DNA from: a virus
Lineage: Duplodnaviria > Caudoviricetes
Virus record (IMG/VR): IMGVR_UViG_3300033463_000023
Span: 64,001-128,000 of that record
DNA length: 64,000 nt
Direction: 5' to 3' (one strand)
Position numbers and translations under genes: made by a program. Below, one piece after another: positions 1 to 19,173 of the stretch (position 1 is the stretch's first letter; the number at the start of each line of letters is the position of its first letter). Under the pieces are notes generated by a model that was given only the letters and a program-made list of their open reading frames with translations, was not told where the DNA came from and made no database searches.

Positions 1-501
1 GTCAACGAGGTGAAGGCCCTCGCGCTGCCCGCCGTGAAGGAATACCGCATCGGCCAGATCGGCGAGTACGACAGGAGCAGCAACGTGAACTCCTTCAGCC
101 TCGGAGCCGTCAGCATGTGGCTCACCGTCGACGAGAGACAGCGGCTGGCCACGCAGATCAGCGCCAACGAGGCCATAGGCAGGGAGAGCATGAGCAAGTG
201 GTTCGGAGGACATGAGTTCTCCTTCCCCGTCGCGGCATGGAGGCAGATGCTCGTGGCCCTGGAGGTATACGCCGGCGACGCGCTGAACGTCACCGAGAGC
301 CACAAGGCCGCCGTGAACGCCTTGGAAGATACGGACGAGGTCCTCGCCTACGACTTCACGGCCGGCTATCCCGAGAAGCTGGCGTTCCCCTACCCCGGCC
401 CGGAGCCTGAGACCGAAGAGGAACCCGGGGAGCAGGAGGAGGAGCCCGTAGAGGAGCCCGCCGTGGAACCGGGTAACGAACCTAAAGGAGAAGAGTCATG
501 A
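1..501 (+). CDS. Tail-fibre-associated protein, DUF4376-like (5' truncated by window edge)
   Basis: Frame open from base 1; YDRSSNVNSF...LEVYA...HKAAVNAL...YDFTAGYPEKL resembles Bacteroidales phage DUF4376 proteins; acidic Pro/Glu tail. Confidence 0.6.
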   Translation, partial: VNEVKALALPAVKEYRIGQIGEYDRSSNVNSFSLGAVSMWLTVDERQRLATQISANEAIGRESMSKWFGGHEFSFPVAAWRQMLVALEVYAGDALNVTESHKAAVNALEDTDEVLAYDFTAGYPEKLAFPYPGPEPETEEEPGEQEEEPVEEPAVEPGNEPKGEES

Positions 502-813: not shown

Positions 814-1230
814 ATGAACACAATTTCTTTTCTAAACGCAATGAAGGAGGTATTCTCCACTCTCGGTGCGAAAACTTCTGACAGCAACTATGGTGTTGCA
901 CTTCTTGACAAGACCTCAGGCGAGCCCAAGGGCCTGATGGGAATGTCCGACCTCGCCTCAGTTCTGGGCGGTGCTATAACAAGATTTGTAGATGCAAATA
1001 CCATACTTTCAAACATTACAGATGATGCTAATGTTTGTTGGGGACGCGGAGTAGATACGCCATCTGATGCTCCCTTTTATGCCGCTGGTGTATGTATGGT
1101 GAAAAAAACACAATATGGGTGCATTCAAGTGGCATTTAAATCTGCAGGTGAATTTGACGGGTTTTATATTAATCAACGTTGGATGACTACCTGGTCTGGC
1201 TGGAAAAAGAGTATTGTGACCAATGTATAA
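814..1230 (+). CDS. Shufflon expression gene: ~50-aa constant N-terminus (814-963) fused to the currently expressed cassette 1 (964-1230), a putative receptor-binding knob
   Basis: Only segment of the array with a start codon behind an AT-rich leader; TTCTGGGCG at 962-970 inside SDLASVLGG; C-terminal half has a knob-like D-x-N...P...Q...R...W-x-x-W pattern. Confidence 0.85.
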   Translation: MNTISFLNAMKEVFSTLGAKTSDSNYGVALLDKTSGEPKGLMGMSDLASVLGGAITRFVDANTILSNITDDANVCWGRGVDTPSDAPFYAAGVCMVKKTQYGCIQVAFKSAGEFDGFYINQRWMTTWSGWKKSIVTNV

Positions 1231-1236
1231 AATGTT

Positions 1237-1497
1237 CTGGGCGGCGTGAGATACAATGGAGTTTCACTTTCAGATTTTAATAACGCAAAACAACAAGGAG
1301 CTTATAAGATTGACACAGGAACCGCCAACTTTCCCACAGGTGCGTACCAATACGGATGTTTAGTAGTTTTTAATGCAAATCCTTTCTTGGTACAAATTTA
1401 TTTTCCTGATACGAATAGATTTGTTTTCGTTAGGACACTTTATAATGGCATTGAATTCAGAACTTGGAAAATGATATCAATGGAGGAACTTACATAA
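1237..1497 (+). CDS. Silent cassette 2, knob-like
   Basis: LGGVRYNGVSLSDFNN...FRTWKMISMEELT*, in frame from core 1235. Confidence 0.85.
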   Translation: MGGVRYNGVSLSDFNNAKQQGAYKIDTGTANFPTGAYQYGCLVVFNANPFLVQIYFPDTNRFVFVRTLYNGIEFRTWKMISMEELT

Positions 1498-1522
1498 AGA
1501 GGAGGGAACTACCCCTCCTCTT
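1497..1522. terminator. Bidirectional intrinsic-terminator-like hairpin; representative of hairpins at 1933-1956, 2241-2265, 3719-3743, 4693-4715, 5261-5291, 5874-5903, 6263-6289, 6850-6871, 7118-7140, 7704-7728, 8089-8109, 8642-8661, 8948-8969, 9444-9464
   Basis: aagaggaggg-aactac-ccctcctctt; GC-rich stems sit at cassette 3' ends, mostly between convergent stop codons. Confidence 0.75.
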
Positions 1523-1574
1523 ATTATGCAAACGTAATATGTTTCCATTCTCCCCATACACCATTTTCGACATT

Positions 1575-1928
1575 CTGGGCGTGCCTTATAATACAACAGA
1601 CTCCGATACCTGGCTTGATACAGGTAAAGCTATACGTATTGCAACAAATTGCGGCAGACTCTGCGCTATGGTAATAACAAGATACTCTTGCTATGTGATG
1701 TTAGTAAGCGTATATGCAGGAACTATTAATACAGGTCAGTCTTTGAAGGCAAAACTCTCTGGAAGCGATCTTGGTTTTTATTATGTAACAAATGGCAGCA
1801 AATGTGATCTGTATATTACATCTTCTACGTCTACTGACTGCGTAGTAGTTCCTTTCTGGAACACACCACAAGGCACATTTGAGTTAACACCAGTTAACGC
1901 TTTGCCGTCAGGTGCTGTAGCATTCTAA
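1575..1928 (+). CDS. Silent cassette 3, non-knob beta-rich type
   Basis: LGVPYNTTDSDTWLDTG...ALPSGAVAF*. Confidence 0.85.
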   Translation: MGVPYNTTDSDTWLDTGKAIRIATNCGRLCAMVITRYSCYVMLVSVYAGTINTGQSLKAKLSGSDLGFYYVTNGSKCDLYITSSTSTDCVVVPFWNTPQGTFELTPVNALPSGAVAF

Positions 1929-1957
1929 AGAAAAAGGGAGGCTAATACCTCCCTTTA

Positions 1958-2236
1958 TTATGTTTGTGTACTAATCCATACGACATTCGCTCTATTTGTG
2001 TCTGACTTTGTAATTGTAATAGATGATGTTGTACATGTTACACCTGTAACACCTGATGCTTCTATTATTTGGGTTACATTTGTTGATCTTGAAAGAGAGT
2101 AAATACCAGGTTGGGAGGTCGAAGAACCTCCAACAGACACAATCAAGAATCCTGAAGCAGTTGATCTCTCTATTGTGATTTCTGAACTTCCAGCAGGAAT
2201 TTCATGCCTTTGATAAGAAAAACCACATACGCCCAG
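1958..2236 (-). CDS. Silent cassette 4, non-knob type
   Basis: LGVCGFSYQRHEIPAGSSEITIERS...VVWISTQT*, from core 2230-2236. Confidence 0.85.
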   Translation of the reverse strand: MGVCGFSYQRHEIPAGSSEITIERSTASGFLIVSVGGSSTSQPGIYSLSRSTNVTQIIEASGVTGVTCTTSSITITKSDTNRANVVWISTQT

Positions 2237-2266
2237 TAGTAAAGGGAGGCTAATAACCTCCCTTTG

Positions 2267-2557
2267 TTATAATTCCTTCCATGATGACCACGAAACACTG
2301 CCTGGATTTCCCAAACCGTACCTTCCATAAGGAGTGCTGCTTGATCTGTCAATGACAATCTGATACCTATCGTAAGTAGTGTGTATATAAACAAGCAAAA
2401 AACGAGTTGAGGTTGATATTGAAGAAGGAAGATTGGCAGGAGCAGACGATGGTGCGCACATACTCCAATACAATCCTGTTCCTGTTCCTGCTTCAAAATT
2501 TAAATCAGTTAGATTACCAAAATCGCTGCTCTTAATTTTGGTAAAGAATGCGCCCAG
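2267..2557 (-). CDS. Silent cassette 5, knob-like; currently fused behind cassette 6
   Basis: LGAFFTKIKSSDFGNLTDLN...SWSSWKEL*. Confidence 0.85.
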   Translation of the reverse strand: MGAFFTKIKSSDFGNLTDLNFEAGTGTGLYWSMCAPSSAPANLPSSISTSTRFLLVYIHTTYDRYQIVIDRSSSTPYGRYGLGNPGSVSWSSWKEL

Positions 2558-2824
2558 AAGGCTTGCGAGGTCACTTGCTGTGGAGCAATTAAAGCTGTTA
2601 CAGTTACCCCAATCAGACCAGCTTGTACCACTAAAGGTTCTTTGGATAGACCGAGCTAAGGTCGGCTGATAGACGGTCTGCACATATCTACCTCCTGATA
2701 CACCAACTACATCAATTGTCCCCGTATGTCCTCCGGGGAGCAAGTCTGATGAGCAAGTGTATCTTCCTGGTGTCTTCAAATCATCAATCGAATTTCCGCT
2801 GTATGTGGTTACTGCTCCGCCCAG
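2558..2824 (-). CDS. Silent cassette 6, knob-like 'extender' with no stop codon
   Basis: LGGAVTTYSGNSIDDLKTPGRY...WSDWGNCNSFNCSTASDLASL reads straight into the next core at 2551-2559. Confidence 0.85.
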
Positions 2825-2851
2825 AACCAACTTTTATAGCGGTTCTGGGCG
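2818..2851. repeat. Back-to-back recombination sites, spacer family A
   Basis: CGCCCAGAA-ccaacttttatagcgg-TTCTGGGCG; exact reverse complement at 3391-3424. Confidence 0.95.
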
Positions 2852-3099
2852 TACCAACCAAGTTTGCAAAAGGCGCACTACAAGTATCTGCAGACAATAT
2901 TAACGAAGACGGGGCATGGTTTGTGTATGGCACCAGTGGGTTGAACACGCCTACAAACTACGGAATCCTCGTGTGTCGGAAGTCCGCGACCGCAAATTAT
3001 GGATATACCGGGGTACAGGTATTTTATCCTACGACAGGACAACTTTCTCACAGGATACAGACGTCAGGTAGCGAATGGGGCAGTTGGCAAAACGGGTAA
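2845..3099 (+). CDS. Silent cassette 7, knob-like
   Basis: LGVPTKFAKG...SEWGSWQNG*. Confidence 0.85.
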   Translation: MGVPTKFAKGALQVSADNINEDGAWFVYGTSGLNTPTNYGILVCRKSATANYGYTGVQVFYPTTGQLSHRIQTSGSEWGSWQNG

Positions 3100-3136
3100 G
3101 ATAATAAAGGGTGGTACTTAATCCGTCCTCTGTTGC

Positions 3137-3397
3137 CTAAACAGCGATGCCTTCAAATTTTGTCCAACTCCCCCATGAAGATTGTGTCCTAACCCTACAA
3201 TGAATGTACTGTACGACACCACAATGGAACACCACCTGGAGTCTGTTATAATAAGAGGTGCCAAGTTGTAGCGTGACAATTAATGCGTATGCGTCTGGAC
3301 CGCCATGAGCATTGCCCGTAGTTAATGTCATGGTGTTGCCTTCAAGATCATCCAGGGAGGTGTTTTCTTCCATGCTAACGGGTCTCAGGCCGCCCAG
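3137..3397 (-). CDS. Silent cassette 8, knob-like
   Basis: LGGLRPVSMEENTSLDDL...SWGSWTKFEGIAV*. Confidence 0.85.
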   Translation of the reverse strand: MGGLRPVSMEENTSLDDLEGNTMTLTTGNAHGGPDAYALIVTLQLGTSYYNRLQVVFHCGVVQYIHCRVRTQSSWGSWTKFEGIAV

Positions 3398-3424
3398 AAC
3401 CGCTATAAAAGTTGGTTCTGGGCG
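3391..3424. repeat. Back-to-back recombination sites, spacer family A (inverted copy)
   Basis: CGCCCAGAA-ccgctataaaagttgg-TTCTGGGCG. Confidence 0.95.
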
Positions 3425-3717
3425 CACAAGCCACCAAGCCAGTCAATATCGATACGATTAGAGAGGGTGTTTCCTTCTTGGTTATCTCCCGGCCGTTTTT
3501 GAGTGGGTATGAAGGAACTTTTCCTTCTGACATGCAGGCTGGAGGCTATGCGTCTTCTGTGTTCTTGATCAGCGCTGTTTTTATTCAAAACTCCAACGAT
3601 AAAATTGGCGTACAACTGTTGTATAACTGGAATGACGATACTCCAACAGTGCTGAAAAGCTGGTATAGGATATGGGGGTACAATAGTAGGACGTGGAAAT
3701 CATGGAATAGCATTTAA
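3418..3717 (+). CDS. Silent cassette 9, knob-like
   Basis: LGAQATKPVNIDTIREG...RTWKSWNSI*. Confidence 0.85.
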   Translation: MGAQATKPVNIDTIREGVSFLVISRPFLSGYEGTFPSDMQAGGYASSVFLISAVFIQNSNDKIGVQLLYNWNDDTPTVLKSWYRIWGYNSRTWKSWNSI

Positions 3718-3742
3718 GGAGGCGGGCTCTGACCCGCCCCTC

Positions 3743-4102
3743 TTAACTGTATGGCGTCACGCTTAATTGAGTTGCGCCACTTGGCAACGACGCAGGGCTA
3801 AAGGCTTTTGCACCAATAGCAATTAACGACACGCTCATGCCCGTTACAGACTTTATGTATACCGATTTTCCGTCCATGTATATTTCAATATAACGGTTTA
3901 CGCCAGATTCAACTACGCCATTTTTCCCCTTGGCTGATACCGTTCCGCCATTCCCGTATATCGTAAAGTCTATCGTGCCGCGGCTGTCTTTATAGTCTGA
4001 GCCGATTATCCTGATACATTCGTACAGGTCACATGTTCCAAGATAGTATACCGCATTGTTGCTTAGTCCGTATGCGTTATAAACCCTGCTATTTACGCCC
4101 AG
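3743..4102 (-). CDS. Silent cassette 10, non-knob type
   Basis: LGVNSRVYNAYGLSNNAVYYLG...SLPSGATQLSVTPYS*. Confidence 0.85.
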   Translation of the reverse strand: MGVNSRVYNAYGLSNNAVYYLGTCDLYECIRIIGSDYKDSRGTIDFTIYGNGGTVSAKGKNGVVESGVNRYIEIYMDGKSVYIKSVTGMSVSLIAIGAKAFSPASLPSGATQLSVTPYS

Positions 4103-4129
4103 AATGATATAGTGAAGACATTCTGGGCG
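4096..4129. repeat. Back-to-back recombination sites, spacer family B
   Basis: CGCCCAGAA-tgatatagtgaagaca-TTCTGGGCG. Confidence 0.95.
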
Positions 4130-4401
4130 GTATTGACGATATATACAAAGGGTCTTTTGCTGTAAACGACACGGTTTCCATAGCACTAAGAGAAGGCTGT
4201 GGGGTATTCTGTTATCGGTTTAAAGGACAGAGCTCCGGCATAATCGCTGTTAGAGGCACGGATATCAAATATTTCACATATACCGATTATGAGGAAGCTC
4301 CTTTAGGGGCAAGACTGAGAGCTGGATCAGATGGTAGCACATTGACCATCACATGTACTCAAGCATGGAATAATCCGTTCCATCTAAAGAGACTGATTTG
4401 A
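4123..4401 (+). CDS. Silent cassette 11, non-knob type (not in ORF track)
   Basis: Manual translation LGGIDDIYKGSFAVNDTVSIALREG...QAWNNPFHLKRLI*. Confidence 0.8.
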   Translation: MGGIDDIYKGSFAVNDTVSIALREGCGVFCYRFKGQSSGIIAVRGTDIKYFTYTDYEEAPLGARLRAGSDGSTLTITCTQAWNNPFHLKRLI

Positions 4402-4405
4402 ATTT

Positions 4406-4689
4406 CTGGGCGATACAGGTCCGGCGATAACGACAGGATCGTGTAACGATATAGTCAAAGCTGGAGTCTACAGACTTCAACCAACTGTTAGCGACACCCC
4501 TTTCGCTTATACTACGTTGTTCGTATTAACGCGCTTGGGTGGTGCTGTCCATCAAATCGGCCTTGATGCTGACAATAGTTATGTGGCATACAGGGTCGGT
4601 GAAAATAATGTGTGGAAAAACTGGTCACGCTGCGACAACTTCGGCTGAGCACGCTTGCCGAGATGAAGGCGGCACTGGCTAATGTATAG
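4406..4689 (+). CDS. Silent cassette 12, knob-like; stops early at TGA 4646-4648 because of an apparent 1-nt deletion (not in ORF track)
   Basis: LGDTGPAITTGSCNDIVKAGVY...WKNWSRCDNFG*, then STLAEMKAALANV* in a shifted frame, matching the cassette 15 tail DNFGCSTLAELKTALANA. Confidence 0.8.
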
Positions 4690-4719
4690 TGAGGTGGGAG
4701 CAACAAACTCCCACCCATA

Positions 4720-5004
4720 TTACTCTATCGGAATATAGTAAACGGTAACCGTCGTTCCTGAATCAGCATTATTGATAGTCCATGTTCCCTGATTGTTTGT
4801 CGAAGGCGTCAAGTCTCCCACAATCTTTTCGTTTACATGGAATGTTACATTGCCAGAGCCGAGTCCTGTTGTTATGACAAAATAAACGCCACACTTCTTG
4901 AAGTCACTTTGAAACGCCACAATAAATCCGTGTGCGGTACTGTTTTTGAAAGCGGTGGCACCTATTCCTTTATTTATAACCTTCAGTCTATTATCTACGC
5001 CCAG
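4720..5004 (-). CDS. Silent cassette 13, non-knob type
   Basis: LGVDNRLKVINKGIGATAF...TVTVYYIPIE*. Confidence 0.8.
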   Translation of the reverse strand: MGVDNRLKVINKGIGATAFKNSTAHGFIVAFQSDFKKCGVYFVITTGLGSGNVTFHVNEKIVGDLTPSTNNQGTWTINNADSGTTVTVYYIPIE

Positions 5005-5020
5005 TTGTGATTTCTGGGCG
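4998..5020. repeat. Shortened back-to-back site pair (23 bp)
   Basis: CGCCCAG-ttgtgat-TTCTGGGCG. Confidence 0.9.
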
Positions 5021-5259
5021 TATCAAGAATAACTCCGTCAGATTTAAACACTGAGAGTTTCTTCGGAGTATTTAAAACCGACGGACAAACACAGAACAAT
5101 CCCGCTGATGGATCTGCAATGGTGGGCGTACAATTTAGGGGAGAGCCTCTTAGTACCGTCCAAATGCTTTTCCGTAGTGCCTATGGTGAAATATACTATA
5201 GGTCTGGTGTCCCTAACGGCCAATGGTATAAGTTTGTAGGAACGCCTGTTCAGGTATAA
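5014..5259 (+). CDS. Silent cassette 14, knob-like (not in ORF track)
   Basis: LGVSRITPSDLNTESFFGVF...GQWYKFVGTPVQV*. Confidence 0.8.
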   Translation: MGVSRITPSDLNTESFFGVFKTDGQTQNNPADGSAMVGVQFRGEPLSTVQMLFRSAYGEIYYRSGVPNGQWYKFVGTPVQV

Positions 5260-5292
5260 TACAATCGGGAGGCGACAGGTCTCCCGATTGTT

Positions 5293-5607
5293 CTACGCAT
5301 TAGCCAGTGCTGTCTTCAATTCAGCAAGTGTGCTGCAACCGAAGTTATCTACCCGTACCCAAACTGACCAGGTTCCGTCGTGTTTTGTTCGATGGTATAT
5401 TTGACCATTTCCTCTGTAATAAGCAGTTTGTGAAACCTCATCAGATGACGATTCGTCACTGGAATTTAATGATTTGACGGTTAAAATACAAAGAGATGGT
5501 TCTGGTATGTTTTGTGAATAACCTGATAATGTATAAGTTCCCGCTATCGTTAATGTATTAGCATCTAAAACTGATGTAGATACATTTCTTACGCCATCTG
5601 CGCCCAG
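5293..5607 (-). CDS. Silent cassette 15, knob-like with C-terminal helix
   Basis: LGADGVRNVSTSVLDANTL...WSVWVRVDNFGCSTLAELKTALANA*. Confidence 0.85.
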   Translation of the reverse strand: MGADGVRNVSTSVLDANTLTIAGTYTLSGYSQNIPEPSLCILTVKSLNSSDESSSDEVSQTAYYRGNGQIYHRTKHDGTWSVWVRVDNFGCSTLAELKTALANA

Positions 5608-5636
5608 AAGTTCAGTTGTGTGTAATCTTCTGGGCG
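5601..5636. repeat. Back-to-back recombination sites, spacer family D
   Basis: CGCCCAGAA-gttcagttgtgtgtaatc-TTCTGGGCG; identical at 7390-7425; inverted with one mismatch at 6557-6592. Confidence 0.95.
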
Positions 5637-5875
5637 GCGTGCCGTCAATGCACACTGCGGATTCTTCTATTGATGCGAACACCTTAGCTGTGCCCGGGTT
5701 TTATCAATCCACTGTTTTTACTAATACACCTATTGCCGTTGGCATTTTGCTTATGCCGTACTATGCAAACGGTTGGTGGAGGTTCCAGTTGTTTATAGAC
5801 CGCTCCGAAGGCCACATGTGGTTTAGGTGTGGCACTTCCAGTTCTTTTGATGCGACCTGGAAACAGATAGTATAA
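5630..5875 (+). CDS. Silent cassette 16, knob-like
   Basis: LGGVPSMHTADSSIDANTLAVPGFY...ATWKQIV*. Confidence 0.85.
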   Translation: MGGVPSMHTADSSIDANTLAVPGFYQSTVFTNTPIAVGILLMPYYANGWWRFQLFIDRSEGHMWFRCGTSSSFDATWKQIV

Positions 5876-5901
5876 TATGGATAGGCAAAAACCTATCCAT
5901 A

Positions 5902-6156
5902 TTATACCGTCTTCCATGTTGCCGTTTCTCTGTGTCTCCAATATATTCCAGTGCTTTCCAGATCAAGAACGATGGTGATTATGCCGTTAGTAAGGAATTT
6001 GATTCTTCTTATGTAAACAGAGTTGCTGTCGGAGATGGTTTCAGGCAAACCTTCACACCTTACTGCATATTGGAAAACATAATCACCTAACGGCAAGTCG
6101 TCGAGTGCAAAACTTTTGTCGTTTGCCGTGATTTGTTTTACATAAGCTACGCCCAG
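5902..6156 (-). CDS. Silent cassette 17, knob-like
   Basis: LGVAYVKQITANDKSFALDDLPLGDY...ATWKTV*; variant site TCCTGGGCG. Confidence 0.8.
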   Translation of the reverse strand: MGVAYVKQITANDKSFALDDLPLGDYVFQYAVRCEGLPETISDSNSVYIRRIKFLTNGIITIVLDLESTGIYWRHRETATWKTV

Positions 6157-6290
6157 GACAACACATGTAATATATGAAAGAGTAAAATGGTCAACATCTG
6201 TAAGCGCGTGGATAGCGTACCAACCACAAACGTAAGAAGGAAAATGTGGCGGAATTAGGCTAAAGAGGAGGGAGCGACTCCCTCCTCTTG

Positions 6291-6563
6291 TCATACCTCA
6301 CCCCACGATCCCCATTCTGTTTCAGACCACCTGGAACGTTTCCACAGCTTTGAGTTCCCTTTTGAGAGACATATCTGGAACCTGACATATTCCGATCGAG
6401 CGACAGAAAGCAGAAGAACCTCATTATTGTTGTCTGGGAAATTTAATGATGCTGGTGTTGCGTCCCTTGCAATAACGTCATGTACACTAAGGCCGTCGTT
6501 TATATTGTTGAGATTCGTGTCCACCTCATATTGAATGCCTTTTATTGCAAGCAATGCGCCCAG
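6291..6563 (-). CDS. Silent cassette 18, knob-like
   Basis: LGALLAIKGIQYEVDTNLNN...EWGSWGEV*. Confidence 0.85.
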   Translation of the reverse strand: MGALLAIKGIQYEVDTNLNNINDGLSVHDVIARDATPASLNFPDNNNEVLLLSVARSEYVRFQICLSKGNSKLWKRSRWSETEWGSWGEV

Positions 6564-6592
6564 AAGATTACACACAACTGAATTTCTGGGCG
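6557..6592. repeat. Back-to-back recombination sites, spacer family D (inverted copy)
   Basis: CGCCCAGAA-gattacacacaactgaat-TTCTGGGCG. Confidence 0.95.
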
Positions 6593-6843
6593 TTATTCGT
6601 TATACAACCTTAATTCCGGCTGGAAGTGATTGCAACGACTTCAAACAGAGTGGCTTATATAATACAGCGGCAAACCTTCAAAATGCGGCATATGCTGGAG
6701 GTCATATTCTTTTCGTTATGAGAGCAGGAGAATATGTCGCACAAATAGCCTTTGATCCAACTGAAGGTAAAGCAAAGCTGAGAACTATAATAGATCGGGC
6801 CGGTTCCACGTATACATGGGTAAACTGGCAAATTATTGTATAA
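6586..6843 (+). CDS. Silent cassette 19, knob-like
   Basis: LGVIRYTTLIPAGSDCNDFKQSGLY...WVNWQIIV*. Confidence 0.85.
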   Translation: MGVIRYTTLIPAGSDCNDFKQSGLYNTAANLQNAAYAGGHILFVMRAGEYVAQIAFDPTEGKAKLRTIIDRAGSTYTWVNWQIIV

Positions 6844-6875
6844 ATACAAGCGGGAGCTGCATGGCTCCCGCCTCT

Positions 6876-7118
6876 CTGGGCGGCATAAGGTTGTCCGATA
6901 GTGCAATTGCGAATTACGCAGACATGACAATGTCTGGCTTATATGTGAGAAATCCAAATACACCTCTCTCCGGCTCAGACATTAATATTGGGTGGGATGG
7001 TACATACCTTTTTATTGCCCATCTCAAATTTGGTACTATGGGCTGCTTAGATATTGCTACAGTATACAACCATACCAAATATTGGATTGGTTTTAGCAAC
7101 GACTGGAGAGAATTATAA
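6876..7118 (+). CDS. Silent cassette 20
   Basis: LGGIRLSDSAIANYADMTMSGLY...NDWREL*; variant site CTCTGGGCG. Confidence 0.8.
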   Translation: MGGIRLSDSAIANYADMTMSGLYVRNPNTPLSGSDINIGWDGTYLFIAHLKFGTMGCLDIATVYNHTKYWIGFSNDWREL

Positions 7119-7138
7119 AAGGGAGGGTTTACCTCCCT

Positions 7139-7396
7139 TTAGATATTGGTCATTGTACATTTCTTCCAGGCAGACCAAGAAGCACTGCTGCCTCCTTTGT
7201 ATCTATGTCCAATTATATTCTCAGCGTTGCACGAGAAGAAGACTTGACAGGACATGGAAGATCTTATCATTACGAATACGATGCCAGGGCAGCTAAACGG
7301 ACTGTTAGAACTGTCTATTCTATAAGTTCCGGAGCCGACGGTGTTAAGAGTTTCTGCCGTCAGATCCGCAGAGCCTACATAAGCACCAACGCCCAG
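7139..7396 (-). CDS. Silent cassette 21, knob-like
   Basis: LGVGAYVGSADLTAETLNTVGSGTY...WSAWKKCTMTNI*. Confidence 0.85.
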   Translation of the reverse strand: MGVGAYVGSADLTAETLNTVGSGTYRIDSSNSPFSCPGIVFVMIRSSMSCQVFFSCNAENIIGHRYKGGSSASWSAWKKCTMTNI

Positions 7397-7425
7397 AAGT
7401 TCAGTTGTGTGTAATCTTCTGGGCG
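7390..7425. repeat. Back-to-back recombination sites, spacer family D
   Basis: Identical to 5601-5636. Confidence 0.95.
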
Positions 7426-7673
7426 CGGTTGTCATAATTGGCACGTTTTCAGATGCAAGCGAATTGGAGAGTCACCCAGTATGTGCGGGACGGGCGTCTG
7501 GATCTGCTACAGGAGTCCCGGAGCAGAATAGTTTTTATCTAAGCATAAAGATAAATGGAGATTACATTTTTCAGATTGGTGTAGGCAAAGAGTCCAACTT
7601 TATATATGTGAGGACAAAGTTCTACGGAGGATGGAGGAACTGGTGGAAAGCTGCGACAACCAAAATTGAATGA
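7419..7673 (+). CDS. Silent cassette 22, knob-like
   Basis: LGAVVIIGTFSDASEL...GGWRNWWKAATTKIE*. Confidence 0.85.
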   Translation: MGAVVIIGTFSDASELESHPVCAGRASGSATGVPEQNSFYLSIKINGDYIFQIGVGKESNFIYVRTKFYGGWRNWWKAATTKIE

Positions 7674-7733
7674 TAGCATTATAACCATTCATTGCACAAT
7701 GAAAGAGACGGGTTGTTACCCCGTCTCTATTTG

Positions 7734-8084
7734 TTAAAGCAATGTATATGATACGTTGCCGTACCTTTGGATTTCAGACACCATAAGAGCGCCAAACGAG
7801 TTGCCTCCAACGGCAGTACACGTTACCTTCACATCTCCGTCGCTGTTGTCTGACGATGGTGTAAATTCTATATTGATATAATCCGTTTTCACAACAACCT
7901 GTCCATTGAGCAGCGAATCCCTGTGTGCAAGGTTGATAATTGCGCATGCTTGCAAATTAAAGAAATTCCTTGTCACGCAAAGAACGGCGTTTCCCTGCAT
8001 GGGAAGATTTACATTAAATTCGATAACCACAGGATTGCTGGTACCGGAGCTTTTAAAGGCGTATACCACATATTGTGCGCCCAG
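7734..8084 (-). CDS. Silent cassette 23, non-knob type
   Basis: LGAQYVVYAFKSSGTSNPVVIEFN...GNVSYTLL*. Confidence 0.85.
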   Translation of the reverse strand: MGAQYVVYAFKSSGTSNPVVIEFNVNLPMQGNAVLCVTRNFFNLQACAIINLAHRDSLLNGQVVVKTDYINIEFTPSSDNSDGDVKVTCTAVGGNSFGALMVSEIQRYGNVSYTLL

Positions 8085-8112
8085 AAAAGAGGTGGGTTAA
8101 TCCCACCTCCTA

Positions 8113-8379
8113 TTATGTTAAAGCAAGGTATTTCCACGATATCCAATTAGAATTGTTTCTTATCCTAAAATAGACTCTTGTCAAATCGGACATTATCCAT
8201 ATTTGCAAGGTGTTGTAATTTGCATTACCTGCGCCAGTAGCAAACGTCAGCAATATTCCCCATTGAGTAGGTAGATTGTGGCTTGAATAACTTGAATCAT
8301 TGACAGAGTAAGCACATGTTGTGAGTACTGTGTTGGCATCTATGTTAGCGATATGACCTTTTGGTAGCACACCGCCCAG
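8113..8379 (-). CDS. Silent cassette 24, knob-like
   Basis: LGGVLPKGHIANIDANTV...NWISWKYLALT*. Confidence 0.85.
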   Translation of the reverse strand: MGGVLPKGHIANIDANTVLTTCAYSVNDSSYSSHNLPTQWGILLTFATGAGNANYNTLQIWIMSDLTRVYFRIRNNSNWISWKYLALT

Positions 8380-8406
8380 AATGTCATCGTGTTACCATTC
8401 TGGGCG
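8373..8406. repeat. Back-to-back recombination sites, spacer family E
   Basis: CGCCCAGAA-tgtcatcgtgttacca-TTCTGGGCG; identical direct copy at 9205-9238. Confidence 0.95.
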
Positions 8407-8639
8407 CATTGGTAGAAAAACATATCATGATAGAAGATCCAGACAGTATAAACAACACAGGCATATATCCAGCAACGTTTACATATAAAACAGGAACAGC
8501 CAGGGGAATGCTTGTTGTGTTCGCAGATAGTACAGTTAGTAGTTTTCCGGCCCAACTCTTTATCGGCTATAACGAGTGTATGGTGAGAAGGGCATCTAAC
8601 ACACAAGCATCATCTTGGTTAGATTGGAAAGAACTTTAA
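8400..8639 (+). CDS. Silent cassette 25, knob-like
   Basis: LGALVEKHIMIEDPDSINNTGIY...SWLDWKEL*. Confidence 0.85.
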   Translation: MGALVEKHIMIEDPDSINNTGIYPATFTYKTGTARGMLVVFADSTVSSFPAQLFIGYNECMVRRASNTQASSWLDWKEL

Positions 8640-8683
8640 TAGGTGGGAGAAAACTCCCACCCATAATTATGAAATAGTCAGCT

Positions 8684-8941
8684 CTGGGCGTAGCAGACTT
8701 CCAAAATTTTTCAGGCAAAGACCTTCCGGATTATGATGCTAACGCACTGGTAACTGGTATTTATTCTACAGCTGCAAACAGAGATTCCAATATTCCAGTT
8801 AACGTTAACGGACTTCTCCTCTGCTTTAAGAGGTCAGCGGTGTATTTTCAGGTTTACATGATAATGGGTAGCTCCATTTTTTACAGGAATTATTTTAACG
8901 AATGGAACGCATGGAAAAAACTGGAGGGAACACCGGTTTGA
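8684..8941 (+). CDS. Silent cassette 26, knob-like (not in ORF track)
   Basis: LGVADFQNFSGKDLPDYDANALVTGIY...EWNAWKKLEGTPV*. Confidence 0.8.
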   Translation: MGVADFQNFSGKDLPDYDANALVTGIYSTAANRDSNIPVNVNGLLLCFKRSAVYFQVYMIMGSSIFYRNYFNEWNAWKKLEGTPV

Positions 8942-8971
8942 CAAATAGAGGTGGGCGCATACCCACCTCGT

Positions 8972-9211
8972 TTACTGATCCACCGTTCCTTCAATCTTTC
9001 TCCACGACTGCCATCCTGCTGTCGTTCTGCTACGGGTTAGCACAAATTCCCTATTATAGGGGGCGTAAAACAAAAAGAAATCGAACTTTAAGAGCATACC
9101 GTTAGTGTTGGAGTCAGAAGGCAATCCTTGCAGGCTTGACCCAAAATACAACCCGTCCGCAATTTCTGTTGGGTTTACGTTTGTTATTTCTCCTTTGTTC
9201 ATTACGCCCAG
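8972..9211 (-). CDS. Silent cassette 27, knob-like
   Basis: LGVMNKGEITNVNPTEIADGLY...GWQSWRKIEGTVDQ*. Confidence 0.85.
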   Translation of the reverse strand: MGVMNKGEITNVNPTEIADGLYFGSSLQGLPSDSNTNGMLLKFDFFLFYAPYNREFVLTRSRTTAGWQSWRKIEGTVDQ

Positions 9212-9238
9212 AATGTCATCGTGTTACCATTCTGGGCG
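9205..9238. repeat. Back-to-back recombination sites, spacer family E
   Basis: Identical to 8373-8406. Confidence 0.95.
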
Positions 9239-9441
9239 TTACATTTAGCACCATTCCTTCTACTTCAGATCCATTTCAAGGGTGGCAAAAGATGTGTATT
9301 CAGTTTAAAAACGCTAACGCCGTTACTCAGTTTGCCATTAAACTAACACGCACATCAGGTTTTTCCGTTGCTGTCAGATCAACAGATGACAATTCAGCAG
9401 CCGATATTAACAGCAAAACATGGGAAAACATTAAAAACTAA
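9232..9441 (+). CDS. Silent cassette 28, short (69 aa)
   Basis: LGVTFSTIPSTSDPFQGWQ...KTWENIKN*. Confidence 0.8.
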   Translation: MGVTFSTIPSTSDPFQGWQKMCIQFKNANAVTQFAIKLTRTSGFSVAVRSTDDNSAADINSKTWENIKN

Positions 9442-9467
9442 GGAGGTGGGTTTGTAGCCCACCTTAA

Positions 9468-9719
9468 TTATGTGTTGTCTGTAGCCAAATATGTCCAAGG
9501 ACCTGCCGAGGCTCTCAATGCAAACTTTTTCCCGGATGAAGCGTTGTATGCCATTTGTAAACAATACCCGTCCAGGTGGCTGTTAATCGTCAGGCATACG
9601 CCAAAGGTAAACGGGGCATTTGTGGTTTGGCTGGAAATAACACAGATACTATTTTGTTTGTTGTTGCCAAGTAAATTATCAAGATCGTACTGGCCCGTTA
9701 GTTTGGTTATACCGCCCAG
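9468..9719 (-). CDS. Silent cassette 29, knob-like (not in ORF track)
   Basis: LGGITKLTGQYDLDNLLG...GPWTYLATDNT*; its site abuts the recombinase stop codon. Confidence 0.8.
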   Translation of the reverse strand: MGGITKLTGQYDLDNLLGNNKQNSICVISSQTTNAPFTFGVCLTINSHLDGYCLQMAYNASSGKKFALRASAGPWTYLATDNT

Positions 9720-9722
9720 GAC

Positions 9723-10946
9723 TTACTTCGGTTTCCGCTTCCTGAAGATCTTCTTCGTGGCCTTCTCCGCGGCGTGGTCCCTGTCGAAGGTGTAGTGCGC
9801 CTCGGTGGTCCGCGTGCGGCTCTGGCCGAGGATGGACGTGATGTTCTGGATGGGCATGCCCATCAGCGAGAGGTTCGTGGCGCACGACTTGCGCGCGACG
9901 TGGAAGCTGACGGCCTTCCCGATGCCCGCCATCGCGGCGACCTCCTTGATGACCCTGTTGGCGGTGGAGTTGCACGGCACGCAGTGAGACAGCTCGCGGA
10001 CGTCCGGGTAGCGGCAGAGGATGTCCATGCCCCTGCCCCAGAACAGCGACCTGATCGGCACGGCGACCTGCCGCTTCGTCTTGTGCATCGTCTTGCGCAG
10101 CACGCCGTTCCTGACGGTCGCCTCCTCGAGCGTGGAGAGGTCGCTCCACCGCAGGCCCGTGTAGCAGCCGAGGAGGAACAGGTCGCGCACCCTCGCCTGC
10201 CGCCCGGCGAGCTCCAGGCGCTCCATCCTCGCGATCTCCGCCAGGGAGAGGAACGCCACCTTCGGCCTCATGTTCCCTATCGTGATGAAGCGGAACGGGT
10301 CGCCGGGCATGGCGTCGCGCTTGCGGGCCTCCTCGCAGAGGGCGTGGAGCGCCTTCAGCCGCCCGATGGCGGTGTTCTCGGCCAGCCCCTTGCCGTCGAT
10401 GAGGAAGGCCCTGTAGCGCTCGATCATGTCGTGCGAGAGCTCCTGCATCGTCGTGTGCGGGCGGAACTCCTCGAAGGACCTGGCCAGCGTGCGGTAGCTC
10501 TCCTTCGTCGACGCGCTGCGCCCCGCCGACGGGACGATGACCGCCTCGACCATCTCCGCGACGGTGGCGGACCTCGACACGCGGCTCAGGTAGGCCTCCT
10601 TCACGCGCCGCGGCGTCGGCGCCGCCCCGGCGGCCTCGAGCTCGTCCTCGTGCTCCATGAGGCGGCGGACGATGCGGGCGACCTTGCGGTTCAGGAGGTC
10701 GTAGTTCGGGTCCGTGGGCTGCACCTTCCCGTAGCGGAAGTCCTCCTGGCGGACCCTGACGTGGGTGTTCACCGTGGCCCGCTCCCCGGTGCCGGCCATG
10801 TAGATGCTGACGACGACGGCGCGCGTGCCGTCGGCCGCCACGTACCCGTTCCTGCTGAGGACGGGCCTGAAGGTGATGGTGGATATCATAGGCGTAGGTC
10901 GTTTGTTGTCGTTCATAATATGTACGGAAAACGGGCGGCGTTTCAT
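9723..10946 (-). CDS. Tyrosine recombinase, probable shufflon invertase (start may be 10916 or 10889)
   Basis: GLRWSDL (Arg), FHVARKS (HxxR), LGQS, TTEAHY (Tyr); Bacteroidetes-type arm-binding and SAM-like N-terminal domains; directly adjoins the array. Confidence 0.92.
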   Translation of the reverse strand: MKRRPFSVHIMNDNKRPTPMISTITFRPVLSRNGYVAADGTRAVVVSIYMAGTGERATVNTHVRVRQEDFRYGKVQPTDPNYDLLNRKVARIVRRLMEHEDELEAAGAAPTPRRVKEAYLSRVSRSATVAEMVEAVIVPSAGRSASTKESYRTLARSFEEFRPHTTMQELSHDMIERYRAFLIDGKGLAENTAIGRLKALHALCEEARKRDAMPGDPFRFITIGNMRPKVAFLSLAEIARMERLELAGRQARVRDLFLLGCYTGLRWSDLSTLEEATVRNGVLRKTMHKTKRQVAVPIRSLFWGRGMDILCRYPDVRELSHCVPCNSTANRVIKEVAAMAGIGKAVSFHVARKSCATNLSLMGMPIQNITSILGQSRTRTTEAHYTFDRDHAAEKATKKIFRKRKPK

Positions 10947-17886: not shown

Positions 17887-19173
17887 CTACTCGGCCTCGA
17901 ACTGGGCCACGAGGTTCTTCACGCCGCCGCCGAACTCGTAGTTGAGCGGGTTGTCGGTGAAGGTCTTCACGCCGTCGCTCCAGCCTGCGAGCTTGAAGCC
18001 GCTTTTAGGCGTGGCGGTCACGGTGATGGTGTCGCCGTCGGCGTAGAGGTCCTTCTGGCCAGAGGTGATGGCCACGGTGCCCTCTGTCTCGTCGGCGCTG
18101 GTCACGGTGAAGATGTCGGCGATGTACTGGCCGGGCGTCCAGTCATACGTGTTGACGGCGTCGTTGCAGGCGAAGTACATCGGGTCGTAGTCGCGGATGC
18201 GGGTCGTGGCGGCCGAGTTGATCTGGTAGCCGATGATCGACAGGTCGTCGTTGGTCTGGCCGATGCGGATGTTGGCCTTTCCCTCGCGCGTGTCGCAGAT
18301 GAACTCCAGGATGTCCTCGCGGCAGACGGCGATGAGCTGTCCGCCGGTACCCATGGCGGCCGAGGTCTTCAGCGTCAGGTTGGGCATCTCGGCAAACTTC
18401 CAGCTGGCCTCCAGCACGGTCGGGGAGATCTGCGGGAAGGTGAGCATGTAGCCCTTCACGGCCAGGCGGCAGAACTCGTCGGAGGCGAGGATGGTGAGCT
18501 TGTTCTCCGGCTTCTTCATGTGGGGATGGAGGGCGCCGTAGAACTTCACGAGCAGCTCGTAGACCTCGACGGGTGTCAGGGGGACGGTGTTGCCGCCCAC
18601 CTGCTTGGTCAGGCCGCCGGTCATGATCAGGTTGCGGTTGGCGACCGAGATGGTGCCGTCGGTACGCTTCTGGGCGATGAGCGTGTAGAATCCGTCGAAC
18701 AGCGAGAGGCCGAGCTTCACCTGGTTGGCGGGTACGTCAGGCAGGTTGCGGTTGGCCTTGTTGCCGAAGAAGATGTTGAAGCGGACGTCCTCGGCGGCAC
18801 GGCCGGCGATCTCCTCCATGTTCTTGCGCGACATCACGGCCTCGTCGGCGGCGTTGACCACGTTGAAGGGGCCCTTCTCGCGGTAGCGCTCGATGCTGTC
18901 CTCGGCCTTGATGTAGTACGGCTCGACCTTCGCGGGGTTGTCCACGATCTTGGCGAGCTGGGAGTTCTTCACGTTGCCCACGCGGTACGGGCGTGCCACG
19001 AGGCCCTTGCGGTTGAAAATCTGACAGACGTCGATGTTCTCCACGTCGGTCGTCACCATGATCCCGAGGTTGCCGAACATGGCATCGTCGAGCAGGTAGG
19101 CCTTGGCCACCAGCTCCTCATGGATCTGTTCCTTGACATGCTGGATGTCACTGATGTTAAGTGCGTAAGACAT
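17887..19173 (-). CDS. Major capsid protein with C-terminal InlB-B-repeat-like domain
   Basis: Follows the protease/scaffold gene; FDGFYTLI motif; C-terminal TVTSAD...GTV...Y.DGDTITVTATPKSGFKLAGWSDG...NP...LVAQFE. Confidence 0.75.
   Translation of the reverse strand: MSYALNISDIQHVKEQIHEELVAKAYLLDDAMFGNLGIMVTTDVENIDVCQIFNRKGLVARPYRVGNVKNSQLAKIVDNPAKVEPYYIKAEDSIERYREKGPFNVVNAADEAVMSRKNMEEIAGRAAEDVRFNIFFGNKANRNLPDVPANQVKLGLSLFDGFYTLIAQKRTDGTISVANRNLIMTGGLTKQVGGNTVPLTPVEVYELLVKFYGALHPHMKKPENKLTILASDEFCRLAVKGYMLTFPQISPTVLEASWKFAEMPNLTLKTSAAMGTGGQLIAVCREDILEFICDTREGKANIRIGQTNDDLSIIGYQINSAATTRIRDYDPMYFACNDAVNTYDWTPGQYIADIFTVTSADETEGTVAITSGQKDLYADGDTITVTATPKSGFKLAGWSDGVKTFTDNPLNYEFGGGVKNLVAQFEAE

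Follow-up and report, generated by a model that had tools for sequence, protein, structure and literature searches.

The R64 shufflon has seven sfx sites and seven variants, and is operated by the tyrosine recombinase Rci at a 7-bp asymmetric crossover core with a conserved 12-bp arm beside it. The tail-fibre switches Min of p15B (six variants), Gin of Mu and Cin of P1 are driven by serine invertases, offer 2–6 variants and have long constant parts. The R64/IncI shufflon, with Rci, sfx and PilV, is cited in two papers (PMC9881135; PMC11852207). The Rin shufflon of Bifidobacterium breve and Bifidobacterium longum prophages comprises five variants and an 11-bp rix site, and its inversions were observed (Mavrich et al., 2018, PMC6109161). 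BV01-like phages of Phocaeicola vulgatus carry a tail-fibre shufflon of 1.7 kb with three cassettes, six isoforms and a 10-bp motif (preprint PMC13596623). Here we describe an array of short cassettes, together with an adjoining gene and recombinase, at positions 814–10946 of a 64,000-nucleotide stretch of DNA (the window). The window corresponds to bases 64001–128000 of the 144,188-bp IMG/VR virus record IMGVR_UViG_3300033463_000023, which is rated complete by CheckV. We read this locus as a multiple-inversion shufflon of a 144-kb tailed phage that diversifies a small trimeric tip, and we assign this reading a probability of roughly 0.7.

The kind of system is already known from Rin, the BV01-like phages, R64 and Min; what is new is the scale, the extender cassette, a site of 9 bp and a small protein that stands alone. 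R64 provides the scheme of multiple inversion, in which each invertible segment consists of convergent cassettes and variable C-termini are joined to a constant N-terminus. Its product, however, is a plasmid pilus adhesin and not a phage protein, and the sfx arm has no counterpart here. Through inversion by Min, Gin and Cin, a phage tail fibre acquires a different C-terminal part and the phage a different host range, but these enzymes are serine recombinases, none of which is encoded in this genome. Rin is likewise phage-encoded, with a constant receptor-binding-protein gene at one end, a tyrosine-family invertase at the other, and very dissimilar C-terminal cassettes that each follow a short asymmetric repeat (rix). 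It differs in its number of variants (five, compared with 29 here and 40 in a relative) and in the sequence of its site. In Rin, the constant part is provided by a sizeable gene with kinship to the receptor-binding protein of Lactococcus phage 1358, whereas a peptide of 52 amino acids (aa) serves here; inversion has been observed in Rin, whereas the evidence for it here is comparative. The likeness to the BV01-like system lies in a Bacteroidales-host phage, in a recombinase that flanks a multi-cassette array overlapping the distal end of a tail-fibre gene, and in a short directional motif. There, conserved extensions of 14–18 bp accompany the site, whereas nothing is conserved past 9 bp here, and activity was demonstrated by reads. 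A literature search found no published shufflon of this kind with more than seven variants, no extender-type second slot and no stand-alone tip family with a 52-aa stalk. The original prediction put the array at about four times the size of the classic systems. With regard to published systems this is fair, but the array is not the maximum, as a related contig contains 40 sites.

The array is built on the heptamer CTGGGCG. Between 964 and 9719 this core occurs 29 times, 15 times on the + strand and 14 times on the - strand. The base composition of the array predicts 0.5 copies, which corresponds to a local enrichment of ~57-fold, and the whole window contains 44 copies, where shuffled sequence leads one to expect 14.3. 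In the remaining 135 kb of the genome there are 35 copies against an expectation of 38.8, and the enrichment is therefore local to the array. The longer site TTCTGGGCG is present at 23 of the 29 core copies. Each core, read as CTG-GGC-G, opens a stop-free frame of 69–119 aa with the N-terminus Leu-Gly-(G/A/V/D), with the exception of the copy at 2818(-), which reads through to 185 aa. These frames take up 90% of 964–9719. Within the cassettes, CTG accounts for 13% of the Leu codons and GGC for 29% of the Gly codons; given this codon usage, the use of CTG-GGC at all 28 further sites has a probability of ~3e-40, which indicates that the constraint acts on the DNA. The sole cassette frame with a start is that at 964, which is reached from the ATG at 814 (gene 814–1230). 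In 22 of the 28 silent cassettes, the stretch from the closest preceding stop codon to the site contains no in-frame ATG. The site at 6150(-), with an ATG 46 codons upstream, was considered as a second expression site and rejected, as the extension is unrelated to the constant part.

The sites divide the array into ten convergent segments of 2–6 cassettes each. The segments are parted by nine head-to-head site pairs of the form CGCCCAGAA - spacer - TTCTGGGCG, of which one spans 2818–2851 and the others start at 3391, 4096, 4998, 5601, 6557, 7390, 8373 and 9205. Only 9–22 nucleotides (nt) separate the cassettes at these pairs. The spacers belong to a few families, are up to 100% identical, and occur in both orientations beside unrelated cassettes. 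Three units of pair and spacer have 100% identical copies far apart (2818–2851 and 3391–3424; 5601–5636 and 7390–7425; 8373–8406 and 9205–9238), again with unrelated neighbouring cassettes. Either these units have been homogenised or the spacers are functional. Between convergent cassettes lie hairpins, which include repeat families D5 and D6, and terminator-like sites number 20 compared with 10.3 expected. A two-way terminator-like hairpin is located at 1933–1956; further hairpins are found at 2241–2264, 5869–5908, 6848–6873, 7117–7140, 7704–7728, 8089–8109, 8948–8969 and 9443–9465.

The content of guanine plus cytosine (GC) is 0.38–0.47 across the array and 0.56–0.75 in the flanks, with means of 0.43 for the array, 0.67 for the recombinase gene and 0.59 for the rest of the window. 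The same difference is found in every related array (L002–L007 and L011), which together with that of the window lie 4–19 GC points below the phage backbone (0.37–0.43 compared with 0.41–0.67); in the contig with 40 sites, the array has a GC content of 0.38 and the recombinase gene 0.56. Low GC is thus a property of the array and not a mark of recent import. It lowers the expected number of stray cores from 2.6 to 0.5 per array, and selection might favour it as a guard against chance copies of the GC-rich core within the cassettes.

The tyrosine recombinase gene lies at the far end of the array (9723–10946, - strand), and its stop codon is 4 nt from the last site (9713–9719). The protein comprises 407 aa as the longest ATG frame, and the alignment with its orthologues starts at Met20. 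Pfam assigns the domains Arm-DNA-bind_5 (weak), Phage_int_SAM_5 and Phage_integrase, the last of which (PF00589) scores 49.4 bits compared with a cut-off of 27.1. Alignment with XerA and XerD places the catalytic residues at R266, H349, R352 and Y385, as expected of a tyrosine recombinase. A genome-wide search revealed no other tyrosine recombinase and no serine recombinase. The enzyme is treated as a putative shufflon invertase dedicated to the array, and its position is kept in three related arrays.

Taken together, the locus contains far more than the three copies of a short asymmetric site, in both orientations, that mark a shufflon, and one started constant 5´ part, with every site reading into a start-less 3´ segment. 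In an integron, the cassettes all point one way, each carries an attC site and an integron integrase captures them at attI; here the orientations are mixed (15/14) and the only repeat is the 9-bp core, and the best NCBIfam scores for an integron integrase are 34 and 18 bits, compared with cut-offs of 265 and 435. The structure of array, gene and recombinase bears out the shufflon architecture of the original prediction. Its count and orientation of the cores, its start-less frames (apart from the read-through at 2818(-)), its AT-rich array and its recombinase stop codon beside the last site were all recovered, the last with Pfam domains in support. The assignment to a phage is also confirmed, by a 2815-aa tape-measure protein and a head-maturation protease encoded in the 144-kb record.

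In the mechanism that we propose, the recombinase would exchange strands inside the 7-bp asymmetric core of two opposed copies. The exchange would invert the intervening DNA and set a new cassette in frame behind codon 50, and successive inversions would bring every cassette within reach. One promoter-proximal gene (814–1230) would supply the constant N-terminus for the 28 start-less cassettes that share its core, and hairpin terminators between convergent cassettes would stop the transcript after the cassette in place. We infer that these sites are the substrate of the recombinase, that the outcome is inversion and not deletion, that cassettes are switched often and that the host is bound by the tip. 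The persistence of many cassettes in the same orientation indirectly suggests a bias towards inversion over deletion, as described for Rci.

The product of gene 814–1230 consists of a constant N-terminus and one cassette. The constant part is encoded by 814–963 (+), the 50 codons ahead of the Leu-Gly of the site, and the 52-aa constant N-terminus ends in Ser-Val-Leu-Gly, the Leu-Gly codons of which form the core CTGGGCG. The expression-site copy of TTCTGGGCG is located at 962–970 (+; core 964–970), and the expressed cassette, which comprises 88 aa and is of the knob type, extends over 964–1230 (+). The AlphaFold2 (AF2) model of the protein has a predicted local distance difference test score (pLDDT) of 77 overall and ~90 for the cassette. 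Residues 51–138 superimpose on residues 448–535 of the R2 pyocin fibre (6cl6_A) with a Z of 10.0 and a root-mean-square deviation of 2.6 over 80 aligned residues, and other matches comprise the AS12 tailspike, a phi812 baseplate protein, the Phi11 receptor-binding protein, the P68 fibre, gp144 of phage K and gp34 of T4. The top 14 rows of the structural search are all phage fibre, receptor-binding or tailspike chains, after which Z falls to 4.0; the Foldseek E-values for the expressed tip are weak by themselves (0.1–1). The knobs of the R-type pyocin fibre and of phage receptor-binding proteins (6cl6, 6ct8, 5efv, 9euf, 6iab, 5m9f) match the fold with a Z of 8–10 over 76–85 residues at 8–21% identity. 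These known knobs are internal or terminal domains of fibres of 250–700 residues, whereas the present protein is nearly a lone knob behind a 52-aa stalk.

A model of three copies scored 0.81, compared with 0.00 for the best control; the runs share at least 82% of the contacts, and the partner pLDDT is at least 68. Of 30 proteins solved as same-chain pairs, 20 attain the mark applied to the trimer, as does one of 23 solved as single chains; these counts serve only as a rough guide for three copies and an author-made alignment. The majority of the model contacts are formed in the constant residues 1–52. The tip protein is accordingly modelled as a small homotrimer with an intertwined constant stalk and the cassette as distal domain, although the passing score may stem from likeness to solved fibre trimers. 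The trimer is probably mounted on the tail, where it would act as a binding tip; the place of the gene at the end of the tail module and the fold of the cassette are the basis for this putative receptor-binding role on the virion.

With a knob profile, 19 of the 29 cassettes matched at E < 1e-3, three matched marginally and seven had no match. This count and the knob fold of the expressed cassette agree with the earlier expectation that most cassettes are knob-like. One of the seven, at 2230(-), was modelled as an eight-strand beta-sandwich with a pLDDT of 91, so that structure modelling, as had been proposed, yields a knob for one cassette and a different fold for another. Among known structures, this model comes nearest to the C-terminal domains of tailspikes or fibres from Acinetobacter and Klebsiella phages (Z 6–7; BFVD E 4e-4), a likeness that is suggestive only. 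Together with the 19 knob cassettes, the predicted beta-sandwich indicates that the array would swap at least two folds. Grouping of the non-knob cassettes by BLAST and phmmer left all of them as singletons.

The knob cassettes on the + strand are located at 1237–1497 (86 aa), 2845–3099 (84 aa), 3418–3717 (99 aa), 4406–4648 (80 aa), 5630–5875 (81 aa), 6586–6843 (85 aa), 7419–7673 (84 aa), 8400–8639 (79 aa) and 8684–8941 (85 aa). Those on the - strand are at 2267–2557 (96 aa), 3137–3397 (86 aa), 5293–5607 (104 aa, including a linker tail), 6291–6563 (90 aa), 7139–7396 (85 aa), 8113–8379 (88 aa), 8972–9211 (79 aa) and 9468–9719 (83 aa), the last of which is the final cassette, whose site abuts the recombinase stop codon. 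Marginal knob matches are found at 5014–5259 (+, 81 aa, E 0.0016), 5902–6156 (-, 84 aa) and 6876–7118 (+, 80 aa). The cassettes at 1575–1928 (+, 117 aa), 3743–4102 (-, 119 aa), 4123–4401 (+, 92 aa), 4720–5004 (-, 94 aa), 7734–8084 (-, 116 aa) and 9232–9441 (+, 69 aa) have no knob match, as is the case for the modelled beta-sandwich at 1958–2236 (-, 92 aa).

The cassette at 2818(-) contains no stop. Its knob is followed by a linker that restores the SDLAS-LG junction (2558–2824, -), and the frame continues through the site at 2551–2557 into the knob cassette at 2267–2557, which thereby doubles as a second domain in the 185-aa frame. Recombination at 2551 would thus alter the second domain. Decayed linkers of such extenders (…STLAE-K-ALAN-) are found at 5293–5334, in the tail of cassette 5601-, and at 4648–4689 (repeat I4), where the stop of cassette 4406+ separates a dead linker tail; the Leu-Gly site has been mutated away in both. 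The orthologue of cassette 5601- in the 40-site array is a live extender (R6008-, 77% identity), and that array contains three stop-less extenders of 173–195 aa. Among the related proteins, P0012, P0018 and P0026 are two-domain proteins built like an extender and a second cassette. The extender would double the combinatorial space, with ~29 single tips and ~27 two-domain tips. No extender or second slot is described for Rin (PMC6109161).

Relatives were drawn from Logan, ENA and JGI assemblies only; no close relative was found in INPHARED phages, IMG/VR or GTDB genomes. A search with the shufflon protein (P0001) identified 31 proteins that are alike over the first ~52 residues (up to 90% identity) and fully divergent thereafter. 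A profile of the constant part identified 134 clusters among 1.84 billion representatives, with the module almost always at residues 1–53. The proteins in these clusters are mostly 125–157 aa long, with some of 220–331 aa, and their C-termini are unrelated and comprise one to three domains. In two metagenomic proteins, P0081 (965 aa) and P0130 (798 aa), the linker portion of the constant module is repeated five times internally. Long multi-domain proteins with ordinary linkers between their domains may thus be the origin of the shufflon junction. In a distant branch (L008 1519–1846, contig Ga0247610_10247968), the constant part is 46% identical and the same MSDLASVLG junction is encoded by an identical 22-nt DNA.

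Several cassettes that are silent in the window are expressed in relatives. The expressed C-terminus of P0017 resembles silent cassette 1237+ (88% over all 86 aa), that of P0007 resembles 5630+ (56%), the second domain of P0018 resembles 6876+ (77.5%), and P0011 resembles 2845+ (49%). P0012 resembles the extender 2818(-) (52%) and continues with a different second domain. In the relatives, the shared cassettes are joined to the constant part exactly at Leu-Gly. In P0003, conversely, a copy (86%) of the expressed cassette of the window follows unrelated sequence. As far as these comparisons reach, the cassette pool is used at the expression site across relatives, which does not in itself demonstrate switching within a population.

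The related contigs share the core and the general layout, with 2 sites (L002), 3 sites (L003), 5 sites (L005–7) and 40 sites (L004/L011). The largest array, in Logan contig SRR18056071_6183 (L004/L011, 2621–15610), exceeds that of the window and has 18 sites on the + strand and 22 on the - strand. In L005–7 and L004/L011 the layout is the same as in the window, with the constant gene followed by the array, the far end of which is closed by an orthologous recombinase gene read from the other strand (35% identity, E 2e-64, in L005; 44%, E 8e-94, in L011). Six of the 29 cassettes have an orthologue in the 40-site array, among them 7139–7396, whose counterpart R7666+ (67% identical) lies in the opposite orientation. 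The comparison of cassette order in related phages that the original prediction had proposed thus reveals rearrangement: the shared cassettes differ in order and orientation, and inversions are needed to account for this. The Logan contig with P0001 ends inside the 2818/2845 pair, which was considered as a sign of inversion and rejected, as the pair is an exact 34-bp inverted copy of 3391–3424. Logan unitigs are built with k = 31, and a 34-bp repeat would therefore explain the break by itself.

These comparisons invite a broader reading, which we advance only tentatively and consider more doubtful than not. The locus would be a hyper-expanded combinatorial tip library of 29–40 cassettes with at least two folds, stackable extenders and one 7–9 bp site across lineages, which captures cassettes from co-infecting relatives. 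As one site is common to lineages whose recombinases are 35–44% identical, a recombinase could capture the cassettes of a co-infecting relative. If cassettes are captured in this manner, the array would resemble an integron of receptor-binding tips in its growth and turnover. With regard to a possible exchange between phages, the shared cassettes are 42–77% identical to those of the 40-site phage. The corresponding backbone values are 73% for the constant part, 64% for the upstream protein and 44% for the recombinase, and the cassettes have no clear excess of identity over these.

Several observations weigh against a shufflon at work. Around the core of the 29 sites, nothing is conserved beyond 9 bp, including no recombinase-binding arm. 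Outside the array, the genome contains three further 9-mers in addition to the 35 heptamers, copies from which the enzyme would have to tell the array sites apart. In the recombinase, Gln374 stands where XerD and XerA carry the second catalytic His. The contigs with two and three sites (L002 and L003) have no recombinase in the 15–20 kb fetched. No alternative junction was seen; the only other assembly of P0001 keeps the same cassette order as far as it extends, and L005, L006 and L007, from three samples, are identical in arrangement. The array could accordingly be a store of cassettes in which recombination is confined to evolutionary time or has ceased, and not a switch that renders each phage population heterogeneous; rare site-specific or homologous exchanges, also between co-infecting relatives that share the core, would then replace the tip. 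The constancy of the expressed cassette in both assemblies of the phage and of the arrangement in L005–7 fits such a library, as does the orthology of only six of the 29 cassettes, which points to turnover by gain and loss; Gln374 might also weaken the enzyme. We regard this alternative as unlikely. An intact recombinase gene has been kept at the array end across lineages that are 35–44% identical, all 28 silent cassettes retain open frames and the exact core, and the orientations are near-equal (15/14; 18/22), as ongoing inversion yields; minority arrangements, moreover, are hidden in consensus assemblies. Similarly improbable is a real shufflon whose trimer is not a host-receptor tip, and serves instead as a virion decoration, as an adhesin for mucus, food particles or non-host surfaces, or as a non-virion infection protein. 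Such a role would suit a protein of just 120–170 aa without a Pfam or NCBIfam family, whose gene lies behind that of a small membrane protein and not straight behind a fibre shaft gene, and whose matched region in the R2 pyocin (448–535) is far from the C-terminus of that fibre, which has 691 residues. The 14 strong structural matches, however, are all distal parts of fibres, receptor-binding proteins and tailspikes, and the modelled non-knob cassette also resembles tailspike C-terminal domains. The gene also closes a tail-gene operon, and extreme cassette diversity is expected from an arms race over the host surface.

The adjacent tyrosine recombinase might also be a lysogeny integrase unrelated to the array, with the sites used by a host enzyme or by none. 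It is the sole tyrosine recombinase of the genome, its architecture of arm-binding, SAM-like and catalytic domains is typical of integrases, and L002 and L003 have sites with no recombinase nearby. We consider this decidedly improbable in view of the 4-nt distance between stop codon and last site, and because three independent arrays have an orthologue in the matching position and orientation. The Rin invertase is described as having arm, core-binding and catalytic domains (PMC6109161). Hardly credible is the notion that the cassettes are independent small genes with their own starts and that the heptamer merely reflects a conserved Leu-Gly motif. An in-frame ATG is present somewhere upstream of the site in six silent cassettes, but 22 of the 28 have none, a finding that speaks against own-start translation, which the original prediction had itself raised, and the sole long upstream extension checked is unrelated sequence. 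The invariant site codons (~3e-40) and the short gaps at the head-to-head pairs, just 9–22 nt, also oppose it, and relatives fuse the same cassettes to the constant part at Leu-Gly. The multiple-inversion shufflon therefore remains the preferred reading of the locus.

The gene 814–1230 concludes a long series of + strand genes, among whose products are a tail protein (phrog_3267) and a protein of 329 aa that matches minor-tail and tail-fibre PHROGs. It is preceded by the gene of a 90-aa hydrophobic protein, possibly a membrane or holin-like protein (498–770, +), which has a 70% identical copy at the same place in L002. Further upstream lies the gene of a 225-aa protein (G000:C1:63824-64501; window 1–501), which is 64–73% identical in five related loci (L003–L007). 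Its likeness to DUF4376 phage proteins comes from language-model features alone and is a lead, not a finding. Possible roles for the two proteins are those of assembly factor and of membrane or holin-like protein, or that of docking partner of the tip. Pfam, PHROGs and NCBIfam contain no family for P0001, the 90-aa protein or the 225-aa protein, with the exception of a weak match of P0001 to a tail-fibre PHROG (E 0.034). Elsewhere in the window, a 428-aa protein with a C-terminal divergent InlB B-repeat (Flg_new_2) domain is encoded at 17887–19173 (-), adjoining the head-maturation protease gene. In three related contigs, a 160-aa ankyrin-repeat protein is encoded between array and recombinase (L005 5930–6412, L006 4265–4747, L007 4190–4672), and in L007 an OrfB_IS605/Cas12f-like TnpB gene follows the recombinase (6303–7439).

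Such arrays break short-read assemblies and gene callers, and these systems are therefore probably under-counted. In practical terms, the family would amount to a naturally occurring collection of small trimeric binding domains that fold separately and share a 52-aa stalk, and its unusually short recombination site could serve as a tool. The host range of phages is usually held to change by mutation or by few-way switches, such as those of Mu, P1, p15B, Rin and BV01. If the shufflon reading is true, one genome with 29 ready-made, stackable tips (40 in a relative) could present dozens of binding specificities, which would bear on how phages keep pace with the surface-varying bacteria of the gut and rumen.

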